From: a virus
Direction: 5' to 3' (one strand)
Length of the DNA: 41,102 nucleotides
Virus genome (UHGV): UHGV-0210063
The notes below the pieces were generated by a model. It had not been told where the DNA came from and searched no databases. It was given only the letters and a program-made list of their open reading frames with translations. The position numbers and the translations under genes are program-made. This document shows positions 1-41,102 of this stretch, piece after piece. Position 1 is the stretch's first letter; every line of letters starts with the position of its first letter.

Positions 1-135
1 ATCAATCGTTTGTTCACATTTCCAAAAAAAAAGTTTTCGAACCTGCGGCGATGTGAGGAAGGGTCAGGCGGCGGTACTGAGCAGCCAGGGTTGCAGAGAT
101 TTGACCCGCCCCTCCCCTACAGATGGGAACTGTTA

Positions 136-486
136 TCAATTGATGCGTTCGCGCGCTGTTTTTGCTTTATGACAGGGCCAGCACAGACTCTGCAGGTTAC
201 TGTCTGCATCTGTGCCACCATGAGCTTTCGGAATGATGTGGTCCACAGTTCTGGCTTCAACGGCTCTCCCATTGCGCAGGCAGTTCTGACACAGATGATT
301 ATCACGCTTCAGTATGCGCGCACGTATGGCATCCCATTTCGAGCCATAGCCACGCTGGTGGCGGCTCAGTCCGCGTTGATGCTGTACCCATCCTTCGCCA
401 CGATGTTTATCGCAGTAACCAGAACTGTCTGTGGTTGTACCTGCACATCCACGCTTACGGCAGGCGCGTGGGATTCGTGATGGCAT
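136..486 (-). CDS. HNH endonuclease (packaging-associated, HK97 gp74-like)
   Basis: 116 aa with Cys pairs and HNH motif (VDHIIPKAHGG...SNLQSLCWPCH); sits next to terminase across the genome end. Confidence 0.8.
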   Translation of the reverse strand: MPSRIPRACRKRGCAGTTTDSSGYCDKHRGEGWVQHQRGLSRHQRGYGSKWDAIRARILKRDNHLCQNCLRNGRAVEARTVDHIIPKAHGGTDADSNLQSLCWPCHKAKTARERIN

Positions 487-5287: not shown

Positions 5288-6271
5288 TCATGCTTTCCAC
5301 TTCAGGACACCCGAATTTCTCGCGTGCATTAAAAAACGAATCAGCAACAACAGCTGGCTGCCGTGTTTTTCTTCAAAATCTTTTACCCCGGCGTGCAGTT
5401 CGTTATGACATTTACGGCACAGCGGAATAACAAACAAATCATCAGCCTTTGTTCCCATCCCTCCCAGTCCATGACCAATGATGTGATGCGGATCATCTGC
5501 CTGATTACCGCACGTCATGCATTTCTGCGTTTTTACCCAACGCGTGTATACAGGCATCTCTTCCCGTTGTGGTTTCTGGCGCTGGAGATACTGAGCCGGT
5601 GACTCCGGATCAACGGCAATGCTGACCACCGTCTTGTCCTGTGGCGGGTTTTGCTGGTGGGCATGAGGCAACGGCGCAAGATTTTTTGTGCGCTGCTTCA
5701 GTATGCTGGTGGCGGTCTGCTCTCCCGGTACGATGTCGCTTTCGCGGTACAAGGAGCGGATTTTTTCCGCACGTAACCCCAGAGAACGACGTAATACTGC
5801 CTCCGGAAGCGCGTCCGCCACCTGATTGCAGACCGCCCACCAGGATAATTCAGCCAGCGACAATTCCCGCTCCTGCGTGCCATTCATTGCATGGCGTATG
5901 ACGTCAATCATCCATGCTGACAGGTTTTGATGAGCAAGTTGCCCGAGTGATTCGGATGTCTGGTCACGCAACTGGTTGTCGCAGTGCCAGCACAACACCA
6001 TCGCGCCGGTACCGTAACGATGTATGACGATTTCACTGTGATGATAGTCACCATGAGGCCACTGGCAGGATTTGACATGACGCAACAGCCAGTCAGACAG
6101 TGCCCCAGCGCCGCCAGCAGCACGAATCACCCGCTCATCGCTGAAAAATGGCAGTAATGATTTATCCTCCGCCAGCGGCTGGCGAACGGCAGGGACGACT
6201 CCGGACGGCAGACCGCGCATGCTTTTCGGTTCAGGCTCCACCAGCACTCGAGGGTTATGAAATACTTGCAT
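5288..6271 (-). CDS. DUF968-like protein with C-terminal HNH-like zinc motif (YdfU-like)
   Basis: C-terminus CMTCGNQADDPHHIIGHGLGGMGTKADDLFVIPLCRKCHNELH; ORF track starts at 6415 but that overlaps the upstream gene, so an internal ATG at 6271 is proposed. Confidence 0.55.
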   Translation of the reverse strand: MQVFHNPRVLVEPEPKSMRGLPSGVVPAVRQPLAEDKSLLPFFSDERVIRAAGGAGALSDWLLRHVKSCQWPHGDYHHSEIVIHRYGTGAMVLCWHCDNQLRDQTSESLGQLAHQNLSAWMIDVIRHAMNGTQERELSLAELSWWAVCNQVADALPEAVLRRSLGLRAEKIRSLYRESDIVPGEQTATSILKQRTKNLAPLPHAHQQNPPQDKTVVSIAVDPESPAQYLQRQKPQREEMPVYTRWVKTQKCMTCGNQADDPHHIIGHGLGGMGTKADDLFVIPLCRKCHNELHAGVKDFEEKHGSQLLLLIRFLMHARNSGVLKWKA

Positions 6272-17167: not shown

Positions 17168-17371
17168 ATGAGCAGCTTATTTTTAACCGAAGATGAATTG
17201 CTAATATTAACGGGCTGCAAATATGCAAGCCACCAGCGAAAATGGTTAATGGAAAACGGGCTTCCGTTCTATACCAATCGTAGTGGCAAACCGATTGTCA
17301 GCCGGGATCTATTTACCTGCAATAAAACTTTACCACCACGCGAGGTAGAGCCGAATTTTGGTGCGATCTGA
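17168..17371 (+). CDS. xis: Putative excisionase (DUF4224-like)
   Basis: 67 aa directly upstream of and overlapping int start; LTEDELLILTGCKY...NRSGKPIV pattern. Confidence 0.55.
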   Translation: MSSLFLTEDELLILTGCKYASHQRKWLMENGLPFYTNRSGKPIVSRDLFTCNKTLPPREVEPNFGAI

Positions 17372-18396
17372 TGGGAAGACGAAGGAAAAATCCTGAACAC
17401 GAAAAATTACCTCCAAATGTATACCCAAATAAATATAGTTATGTATGGAAACCAACATCCAGAGAATCTGTCACACTAACCGCCATCAAGGATGGTTTAG
17501 CTGCTTTATGGAAAAAGTATGAGGAAACTGTAAATAATCGCGATCGTGCAATGACATTCGGTCGCTTGTGGGAAAAATTCCTCGCCAGCGCCTATTACAG
17601 TGACCTTAGTCCAAGAACACAAAAAGATTATCTGCAACATCAAAAAAAGTTGCTTGCCGTATTCGGTAAGGTACCAGCGGATTCCATAAAACCAGAACAC
17701 ATCCGTCGATACATGGACAAAAGAGGGGAGCAGAGTAAAACGCAAGCCAACCATGAAAAAAGCAGTATGTCCCGTGTTTACAGTTGGGGGTATGAGCGAG
17801 GGTACGTCAAGGCTAACCCATGTGCAGGTGTAAGTAAATTCAAGGCCAAAAACCGCGAACGATATGTAACCGACAAAGAATACCAGGCAGTATTAAGCGT
17901 TGCACCTCTTCCTGTTTTTATCGCAATGGAAATTGCCTATCTGTGTGCAGCGAGGGTTTCCGATGTGTTATCGCTGAAATGGGAACAGATTGGAAACGAC
18001 GGGATATTCATCCAGCAAGGGAAAACCGGAAAAAAACAGATAAAAGCATGGAGTCCACGATTACAGGCAGCGATCGAAAAAGCAAAACAGTTACCAAAAT
18101 CTGCCTATGTGATCAGCAATCAATACGGCAACCGATATATGTACAAAGGCTTTAACGAAATGTGGGTAGAAGCAAGAAATCGTGCTGGAAAAATTTCAGG
18201 TATTTTAACCGACTTCACCTTTCATGATCTGAAGGCGAAAGGAATTTCAGACTATGAAGGAAGCAGCCGGGATAAGCAACTTTTCTCTGGTCACAAAACC
18301 GAAGGGCAAGTGCTAATCTATGACAGGAAGGTTAAAGTTTCACCAACACTTGATGTCCCGTTACCTGAAAATATTCCAAGAAAATATTCCAAGTAA
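17371..18396 (+). CDS. int: Tyrosine-type site-specific integrase
   Basis: 341 aa; C-terminal catalytic region (HDLKAKG...GHKTEGQVLIYDRK); adjacent to tRNA-Ser fragment. Confidence 0.85.
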   Translation: MGRRRKNPEHEKLPPNVYPNKYSYVWKPTSRESVTLTAIKDGLAALWKKYEETVNNRDRAMTFGRLWEKFLASAYYSDLSPRTQKDYLQHQKKLLAVFGKVPADSIKPEHIRRYMDKRGEQSKTQANHEKSSMSRVYSWGYERGYVKANPCAGVSKFKAKNRERYVTDKEYQAVLSVAPLPVFIAMEIAYLCAARVSDVLSLKWEQIGNDGIFIQQGKTGKKQIKAWSPRLQAAIEKAKQLPKSAYVISNQYGNRYMYKGFNEMWVEARNRAGKISGILTDFTFHDLKAKGISDYEGSSRDKQLFSGHKTEGQVLIYDRKVKVSPTLDVPLPENIPRKYSK

Positions 18397-38848: not shown

Positions 38849-40606
38849 TTAAAGCGAGCGGATGCCCACGCTGACCAGATGTTCAGACAGATCCAGCTCC
38901 GGTTCACCACCATTGACCAGCATCCGGCTCATTGCTGTAAACATCGCAACAGGGCCGTCGATTTTGGCTTCCTGCGTGGATTTATTCGGGAAGATATTGT
39001 CGTTTTTGTCCGGTTTTACCGTAACGTTAGACATCATCCAGTTCATGACCGGATGATTGCTGTGATGGAAACGCCCGGCATAGACCAGTGATTCCGTTTC
39101 CTTCATGGCCTCTGACAGATTGCGAACCGTCTGCGGAACCTCCACCAGCGGTATCCCTTCTTCAGCCAGTGCCAGGCTGAACTGCATCGCGCTCCACGGG
39201 TCAAATCCCAGTTCCCTGAGGTTTTCACCACCAATCCATTCCAGTAAGTCACTTTTTATCTGAGCATGATCGATAACATCACCATCCGTCAGAATCAGCT
39301 TATCCATCTCCGCCCACTTCCGGTAAAGTTCTGCCTGCTGCCGCGAGCATCGTTCCAGCCGTCCTTCCGGAAGCCAGAATTTAAAATCGGCATGAACATG
39401 CCCGTTATCCGTTCGCCAGAGTTTTGCCGCCGCACAGATATCAATCTTATGAGCAAGGTCAACGCCGACCCACATGGGATACGTTTTCAGCTCATGTCGT
39501 GGGGCAATGTATTCGCACTTCTCCCACTTAATCATGTCCATCCAGGCAGACTCTGCTGTTACCCACACATTCATGTGTTTGGTAAAAAAATTCACCCGCG
39601 CAGAGACCTGTTCTTTCGCTTTTTTCGCCAGGCGACGCAGATCATCCCAGCGTTTACAGATGCCCAAGCCGGGATTCGCTTTCTGCCAGACCGTTTCATC
39701 AAACGGATCATCTCCCTCATCGAGGGTGTAAATAATCGCAAAGTAGGAGTCGTCTTTTACCGCGCCCTCCACGTCGCTGTTATAGCCACGCAATACCTTG
39801 ATGGCGTAATCACGCTGCTCGTAACAAATCCCTTCCTTGTTAAACCCTGCCGTGGTGATACCAAATAAAAGGGACTGCAGACGGGCACCGGTTGCCGTTT
39901 CCAGAACGTCCCACACGTCACGGGTTTTATGTGCATGCAGCTCATCAATAATGGCGCAGTGGATGTTCAGACCATCTAGGTTGTTTGCATCCGAAGAAAG
40001 CGGTTCAAATTTTGATGCGCTCTGCTCCTGGTAAATCGCCAGCTTGTTGAAATCAAACAACCGCCCGAGTGTCGACCGGGCTTTTCTGACCATATTTTTG
40101 GCGTCTTCAAACACGATTCTGGCCTGGTCACGCGTGGTTGCGGCTGAATACACCTCAGCTCCGCCTTCACCATCTGCCCCCGTCATATACAGGCCGATAC
40201 CCGATGACAGAGTTGATTTTGCGTTTTTACGGGCGACTTCGTTGTACGCCGTCCGGAACCGGCGCACCATCACCGGACGTCCGCTGCCATCGCTGCGCAT
40301 GACAACTTCCCCGGTCTCTTCATTGACCAGCGGAATGACAAAACCAAAAATATTAATGAGGATAAATACATGCCAGTCCATCAACTCAATGGGCTGGCCT
40401 GCCAGCGCCCCTTTTACATGAGGCACAAATTTGTAGAAATTCAGGATGTGCTGCGCACGGGGTTCACTGAAATAAATCCCCCGCTCTTCGCCGTACTTCA
40501 GATCATCAAGAAAACGCTGGCAGGCCAGGCGGACAAATTCGCCAGCAACAATTTCTCCTGCAACAACACGTTCGGCGTAGCGGATCCCGTCAGCCACTTT
40601 TGCCAT
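38849..40606 (-). CDS. Terminase large subunit
   Basis: 585 aa; ATPase and nuclease regions; position after terS. Confidence 0.9.
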
Positions 40607-41088
40607 CAGTCTCTCGCTTTTAAAAGCTCCGCCAGCGGATCAACATCATCCGGTCCGGCGATATTTACTTTAGCCCGGCTTGCCGGTGACATACCAAACT
40701 CTGCAAGCATTGCCCGGATCCGCTTCCAGGCATCCGCTTTCATTGCCGCCGCGGGGTGCGCCTTAATCAGTACATCACCGCTCTGCGTTTCCGTGCGGTA
40801 GGTATACCCCTCAACATCGAGTGTTTCGCAGTGATGCCGATATTCGGTGTAGGCTTCCACCAGCAACTCGAGCGCACGCGCATCAAGCTGAGAAATGATC
40901 CCTTCCGCATTCAGCTCTTCCGCCATTCGCCTGAACCAGTACTTCCCCTGAGCCCCTAAATGCTGCGGAATTTTAGGAAGACCTTTTTCATCCTTTTTAG
41001 CGGTTTTTTTGTGGTCTTTAACGGGGCGCTTTGAGGGGTTGCCTCGAATCAAATGCAGGCGTGGCGGGGTTTTCGGAGGTCCTGACAT
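40606..41088 (-). CDS. Terminase small subunit
   Basis: 160 aa basic N-terminus; immediately upstream of and overlapping terL. Confidence 0.8.
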   Translation of the reverse strand: MSGPPKTPPRLHLIRGNPSKRPVKDHKKTAKKDEKGLPKIPQHLGAQGKYWFRRMAEELNAEGIISQLDARALELLVEAYTEYRHHCETLDVEGYTYRTETQSGDVLIKAHPAAAMKADAWKRIRAMLAEFGMSPASRAKVNIAGPDDVDPLAELLKARD

Positions 41089-41102
41089 AATCGGTCTTAC
41101 CT

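Follow-up and report, generated by a model that had tools for sequence, protein, structure and literature searches.

The intergenic gap between the HNH endonuclease gene and the small terminase gene (terS) of the virus genome UHGV-0210063 is most likely a cohesive-end packaging site of the HK97/phiP27 type, cut at positions 64–73 of the window, i.e. the whole stretch of 41,102 nt analyzed here. We put the probability of this reading, together with the mechanism proposed below, at roughly 0.8. The site itself is an ordinary HK97/phiP27-type cos, and the comparative observations that accompany it are modest leads. For a prophage family widespread in Escherichia coli, it does allow the genome ends and the direction of packaging to be predicted in testable form, which helps to re-orient such genomes, to interpret read pile-ups in viromes and to plan transduction or cos-plasmid experiments.

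The window represents a complete genome of a lambdoid temperate phage with the structural genes on the minus strand. In phage orientation, terS is followed by the genes for the large terminase (terL), portal, protease, HK97-fold capsid and tail proteins, including an HK97-type tape measure and a gpJ-like tip protein. The integrase gene (17371..18396), a CI-like repressor and lysis genes come after the tail module, and the HNH gene is last. With its integrase gene in the middle, the window cannot correspond to a prophage delimited at att; rather, a circular sequence has been opened within the HNH–terS gap. From the HNH stop codon to the terS ATG the gap measures 149 bp (window 135..1 plus 41102..41089). 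When the window ends are joined, 186 nt across the junction are 100% identical to a single contiguous stretch of the E. coli MS8345 chromosome, where they belong to a prophage; thus, no sequence is missing or duplicated at the boundary. Of 5426 complete E. coli genomes, 920 (~17%, about 1 in 6) contain a related junction, every time in the chromosome, and such junctions also occur in many phage records. Neither a sigma-70-like promoter nor an intrinsic terminator nor a match to an Rfam family was found in the gap, and its repeats are short ones at chance level.

The first-pass annotation had placed a putative cos between an HNH gene and terS, and both flanking genes are indeed present, the HNH gene at 486..136 (PF01844) and a P27-family terS at 41088..40606 (PF05119). 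Homologues of the latter, 216 in number, are spread across Enterobacterales. Residues 122–559 of the TerL match the structure of HK97 TerL (6Z6D; phmmer, E 1.2e-35). Residues 1–114 of the HNH protein align to residues 1–126 of the GVE2 HNH structure (5H0M, E 2.4e-15), so that the homology is full-length, and 37% of positions over 70 aa are identical to HK97 gp74. Judging from this homology, the window HNH is a packaging accessory nuclease. The features of the locus are collected in Table 1; positions with a plus sign are counted from the predicted cut towards terS.

Table 1. Features of the HNH–terS locus in window coordinates.
Feature	Position	Strand	Evidence or remark
HNH endonuclease gene, 116 aa, N-terminal zinc ribbon and HNH domain	136..486	-	Pfam PF01844, E 1.9e-16
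G-box, GGGGAGGGGCGGGTCAAATC, conserved, cosQ-like position	98..117	-	Single copy in window
Spacer from G-box (ending ...TCAAA) to 10-mer	74..99	-	26 nt; sequence variable, length constant
Predicted cosN, 10-nt 3' cohesive end	64..73	-	CGCCGCCTGA on minus, TCAGGCGGCG on plus strand; gap-free homology to reference 10-mers
Right-arm core, CACATCGCCGCAGGTTCGAAAAC, candidate TerS recognition element	33..55	-	+9..+31 from cut; holds second CGCCGC at 50..45
T9 run (A9 on plus strand)	24..32	-	+32..+40; with preceding GAAAAC forms an A4-C-T9 tract
IHF-like site, TATCAATCGTTTG	41102 + 1..12	+	+52..+64 from cut; exact match to WATCAANNNNTTR; straddles window boundary
terS Shine-Dalgarno-like sequence, AGGTAAG	41096..41102	-	Read from sequence
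terS, P27-family small terminase, 160 aa	40606..41088	-	Pfam PF05119, E 2.3e-25
terL, large terminase (ATPase and nuclease)	38849..40606	-	PF03354 and PF20441

The cut is predicted to consist of two nicks, 64|63 on the minus strand and 73|74 on the plus strand (GGCGGCG|GTAC). Window 73..64 aligns without gaps to the 10-mers at the ends of HK97, SfI and phiP27, and in all three phages a G-rich box (G-box) lies 26 nt upstream of the 10-mer. The ends of HK97 and SfI are documented in papers, and that of phiP27 is a GenBank feature only (‘cos-site’, CGCCCGCCCC). HK97 has 10-nt 3' overhangs (PMC9410871, Figure 1 legend; PMC11331095). The right end of its record reads ...ATGAC|CGCCGCCAAA|, and base 1 of the record equals +1 of the published cos numbering, with T16, C:G at 21 and A:T at 24–29 all in agreement (PMC11331095). 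Thus, the HK97 cut follows ...GAC CGCCGCCAAA. In the case of SfI, run-off sequencing of virion DNA defined a 10-nt gap, TGCCCGCCCC (PMC3636060), which is identical to the final 10 nt of the SfI record. We infer the exact termini and the polarity of the overhang in the window from homology to these phages, whose right arms differ. The Discussion of PMC9410871 gives a 10-nt 5' overhang for lambda and a 12-nt 3' overhang for HK97, the two numbers apparently being swapped relative to its own Figure 1 legend.

It had also been suggested earlier that a GGCGGCG motif and a run of A in the first 135 bp could belong to cosN and cosB, with comparison to known HK97-like cos sites as the way to check. The comparison bears this out: the gap is homologous to the cos sites of HK97, SfI and phiP27, for which ends have been reported; GGCGGCG (67–73 on the plus strand) falls within the 10-mer aligned to the reference 3' overhangs, and A9 (24–32 on the plus strand) is part of the conserved terS-proximal arm, the counterpart of cosB. 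Neither motif is enriched in the window (10 observed versus 6.6 expected for GGCGGCG; 1 versus 1.3 for A9), so that it is their position and homology, and not their frequency, that give them meaning.

The left half of the site consists of the G-box, the spacer and the beginning of the 10-mer (ACCGCC...). No chance match to the G-box with up to three mismatches is found elsewhere in the window. The box is shared by HK97, SfI, SfV, phiP27, mEp235, Fraca, Klebsiella and Morganella phages and one satellite, irrespective of the upstream gene. In nine of the nine sequences measured by script (window, HK97, SfI, SfV, phiP27, mEp235, Fraca, Klebsiella phage 1 LV-2017 and the satellite), exactly 26 nt separate the G-box, ending in ...GGGTCAAA, from the 10-mer. 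The spacer is gap-free in the remaining aligned relatives as well, the Morganella phage included, with the sole exception of the rearranged CharmingMan record. The left half travels with the HNH gene and is also retained next to other upstream genes in Fraca, the Morganella phage and the satellite, which is encoded in the E. coli N12 genome. The fixed spacing and the retention in the satellite suggest a function, either a cosQ-like termination signal or docking of the nuclease; by analogy with the position of lambda cosQ, we propose the G-box as a putative docking or termination element.

The right arm, from the cut to terS, contains the candidate recognition site of TerS. The HK97 TerS nonamer binds +15..+29, recognizing a single C:G pair together with the deformability of the 9-bp A-tract beside it; by stalling the motor, it positions cos in the TerL nuclease (PMC11331095). 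The right-arm core of the window is near-invariant among Escherichia, Klebsiella and Morganella relatives and the N12 satellite, and by analogy its GGTTCGAAAAC-T9 block is likely the site of the phage's own TerS. There is no detectable sequence similarity between the window TerS and HK97 gp1, and an AlphaFold model of the former (pLDDT 68) gave no informative fold match; thus, the assignment of the TerS site is an analogy supported by conservation. The T9 run is the only one of its kind in the window and the longest version among close relatives, in which 6 to 9 residues are found. This variability suggests that the spacing between the GAAAAC block and what follows is not critical. Further downstream, the putative IHF site matches the IHF consensus, WATCAANNNNTTR; it is the lone match in the 2.7-kb locus (L009, 1675–1687), with 0.07 expected. 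A variant common in close relatives (..TCATTTA) also fits the consensus, and the copy in the N12 satellite does not. In sister subtypes, the T run is directly followed by a dyad-symmetric element, the sequence of which differs while the symmetry is kept: ATGGGGTCCCCCAT in mEp235, Fraca and Klebsiella phages, CCGGGATACCCGG in Morganella and CCGGGGATCCCCGG in Providencia. The window subtype has GGAAATGTGAACAAACG in its place and no dyad. The element could be a site for a dimeric protein or an RNA hairpin ahead of terS.

HNH–terS gaps were taken from 77 of 80 IMG/VR relatives found via the HNH protein, yielding 62 distinct sequences including that of the window. On the evidence of these sequences, the cos is composed of two exchangeable halves. 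The right half, beginning at +1, exists in at least three types (window, phiP27 and SfV types), each paired with its own terS sub-lineage; the window type reads CCYTTCCTCRCATCGCCGCAGGTTNGAAAAC followed by T6–9. This covariation of arm type and terS type fits the location of the candidate TerS site in the right arm. Natural recombinants occur, among them L069, in which a P27-like left half is combined with the window-type right arm. Among the 63 distinct sequences with the window-type arm, the best conserved segments are the near-invariant ACCGCC (75..70), +1/+2, CATCGCCGCAGGTT.GAAAAC (53..33), the core of the T run and GATTGATAGG; the length of the T run and +41..+56 are variable. The breakpoints of the mosaic sequences (IMG/VR L064–L088) fall within the last 2–3 nt of the 10-mer. 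This points either to a recombination hot spot at the cos ends or to the survival of whole-module exchanges only.

Independent retention of the site is provided by a PICI-like satellite in E. coli N12 (L090, NZ_CM165901). It encodes a primase, SSB, a lambda gpE-like capsid protein, a gpD-like decoration protein, AlpA and a Nu1-family TerS/Rpp-like protein, with an exact copy of the lambda cosN 12-mer just upstream of the Nu1-like gene (L090, ~4380). About 1.6 kb further on (~5998–6125) lies a complete window-type cos, i.e. G-box, 26-nt spacer, ACCGCCGCCTGA, right arm and T7, with neither an HNH gene nor a P27-type terS adjacent to it. Conservation of all cos parts apart from these genes supports the reading of the gap as a cos. 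The satellite may use two helper families. It adjoins narP.

As far as we found, the window-type right arm has no experimentally mapped representative. None of the mEp235, Fraca, Evi, CharmingMan and PSTRCR_117lys records demonstrably starts at a mapped terminus, and assembly anomalies at cos are seen in several of them. The first 127 nt of Fraca (L091, LR597645) are a copy of its own terL (1843–1969), joined through a 3-nt microhomology to the predicted +1, and the record ends with a 63-nt repeat of 125–187, 14 nt before the terS ATG. Fraca is a chimeric or redundant assembly, and the join at +1 hints at a chimera formed at a physical DNA end. The record of Providencia phage PSTRCR_117lys (L099/L100, MW358929), declared circular, ends inside cos, between the G-box and the right-arm GGTTAGAAAAC; compared with Morganella phage IME1369_02, ~40 nt including the 10-mer are apparently missing. 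We consider the anomalies of Fraca and PSTRCR_117lys weak hints that the ends lie at the 10-mer. In CharmingMan (L094, PP925830, ~480–510), the segment with the 10-mer is inverted (TTAGGCGGCGGTCC, flanked by GCGCC/GGCGC), and the two closest chromosomal prophages (L096, L097) have the canonical orientation; this is probably an assembly artifact at virion ends, or else a singular variant. Evi (L098, LR597642, ~390–505) has a truncated HNH gene, and in place of the cos as far as the T run it carries an inverted copy of the 5' part of terS, which the record lists as a second ‘small terminase’. The anomaly is likely an artifact of fold-back during assembly; since it covers the entire cos region and does not end at +1, it is uninformative with respect to the ends.

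The core of the predicted cosN (68–73) recurs as a direct repeat 23 nt downstream, within the right arm (45–50). This second CGCCGC is invariant in all phages with the window-type arm, being even more conserved than the first, it is embedded in the arm that covaries with terS, and in Klebsiella relatives it reads ACCGCCGC, closer still to the context of a cut site. The cut could, accordingly, be placed there (50..45, CAT|CGCCGCAGGT), with the upstream copy serving as a recognition element or being a relic. Against this, HK97, SfI and phiP27 lack the second copy and have their ends at the first one, at the fixed distance of 26 nt from the G-box, and both the mosaic breakpoints and the chimeric join of Fraca coincide with the end of the first copy. 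We therefore regard a cut at the downstream repeat as unlikely and retain 64–73 as the predicted cut.

The window edges themselves (1/41102) might be thought to be virion termini, the record having been linearized at mapped ends. The genome is complete and opened inside the cos region, a seamless join would also be expected of a record cut at true cohesive ends, and the Fraca record ends at the homologous position. However, the ends reported for HK97, SfI and phiP27 correspond by homology to a position 63 bp upstream of the edge, and the edge itself is devoid of a conserved motif resembling a cut site. It lies 14 nt upstream of the terS ATG, directly 5' of the Shine-Dalgarno-like sequence, which fits the habit of starting a record at terS; the mEp235 and SfI records are also opened conventionally. 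That the edges are the physical ends is thus very improbable, and they look like a mere linearization point. The first-pass expectation that the packaging site spans the window ends was correct insofar as the gap does cross them, but the predicted cut lies entirely at 64–73, 63 bp from the edge; what crosses is the distal right arm alone, with the IHF-like consensus and the terS ribosome-binding site. Headful (pac) packaging, in which the intergenic motifs would not be a cleavage site, has nothing specific in its favor, except that the mode of packaging cannot be read from the family of the small terminase alone, and can be practically dismissed given the homology of TerL to that of the cos phage HK97, the HNH gene adjoining terS as in HNH-dependent cos phages, and the conservation of cos even in a satellite lacking P27-type terminase genes.

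For the cos reading, we propose the following mechanism. In replicating concatemers, TerS would bind the conserved arm downstream of the cut (55..24, the right-arm core and T9), whereupon TerL and HNH would introduce the two nicks, 10 nt apart. The HNH nuclease would be responsible for the plus-strand nick (GGCG|GTAC) and TerL for that on the minus strand, producing the 10-nt 3' cohesive end CGCCGCCTGA/TCAGGCGGCG. The terS-proximal end would enter the head first, so that packaging would proceed from window 63 to 1 and from 41102 downwards until the next cos. The G-box (117..98), 26 nt before the 10-mer, may act as a docking or termination element in this process.

Compared with HK97, the window has the same gene order (HNH-cos-terS-terL), a homologous TerL and a related HNH protein. 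The left halves, composed of the G-rich box, the 26-nt spacer and GAC|CGCCGCC, are alignable, and both phages possess an A/T tract beside C:G pairs downstream of the cut. By contrast, the TerS proteins are unrelated in sequence and the right arms cannot be aligned; the A/T tract occupies +32..+40 in the window versus +23..+31 in HK97, and the distance from the cut to the terS ATG is 77 nt versus 49. PhiP27, SfI and SfV share with the window the TerS family (PF05119), a near-identical HNH gene and left cos half including the G-box, and the position of the 10-mer. Their 10-mer is C/TGCCCGCCCC, as opposed to CGCCGCCTGA in the window, their right arm is of another type (GTCRWWTTTTTAYACCCGCG...), and their TerS belong to different sub-lineages. 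The lambda cos follows the same logic, with an upstream element, a staggered nick site and a TerS-binding arm with a possible IHF site, and packaging towards the terminase genes is common to both. Lambda cosN also holds a CGCCGCC core. Differences lie in the 12-nt 5' overhang of lambda, made with Nu1/gpA, versus the predicted 10-nt 3' overhang and HNH dependence in the window. The window TerS belongs to PF05119 and not to the Nu1 family (PF07471) of lambda-type cos systems, and lambda cosN (GGGCGGCGACCT) has three matches with two mismatches in the window against 3.1 expected, none of them near cos.

According to the literature on HK97, the HNH protein gp74 stimulates cos cleavage, and it has been suggested that TerL and gp74 share the work, each cutting a single strand (PMC11331095). 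Xu and Gupta reported that GVE2 HNH (N.phiE2) and N.phiGamma nick at CG|GT, which equals AC|CG on the opposite strand (PMC3592412). The predicted plus-strand nick falls within the same motif (GGCG|GTAC), and we therefore propose HNH as the plus-strand nicker. HK97, phiP27 and the window share AC|CG as the 5'-recessed boundary of the overhang; the corresponding sequence in SfI and SfV is AC|TG. Unlike the window HNH, gp74 is reported to have no N-terminal zinc ribbon (PMC3592412), and packaging HNH proteins, gp74 included, have been described as non-specific in vitro. GVE2 was considered as a test of whether HNH specificity coincides with the cos boundary; with its record linearized within the HNH gene, and with terS directly adjoining that gene, it is uninformative on the ends. 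A more general scheme can be offered tentatively, as a possibility that is rather less than even. HK97-like cos sites may share a bipartite left half in which a G-rich box (GGGGNGGGGCGGGTCAAA), exactly 26 bp from the cut, would be cosQ-like or dock HNH-TerL; the zinc-ribbon HNH, through its intrinsic CG|GT preference, would place the bottom-strand nick at AC|CG, with the top-strand nick made by TerL 10 nt away, and TerS specificity would reside solely in the exchangeable right arm. On this scheme, satellites of the kind found in E. coli N12 could acquire such a cos beside one of lambda type and draw on two helper families. Taken together, the constant distance to the G-box, the exchangeable TerS arm and the AC|CG at the nick provide an inexpensive way of assigning each strand to its nuclease in HNH-dependent terminases.
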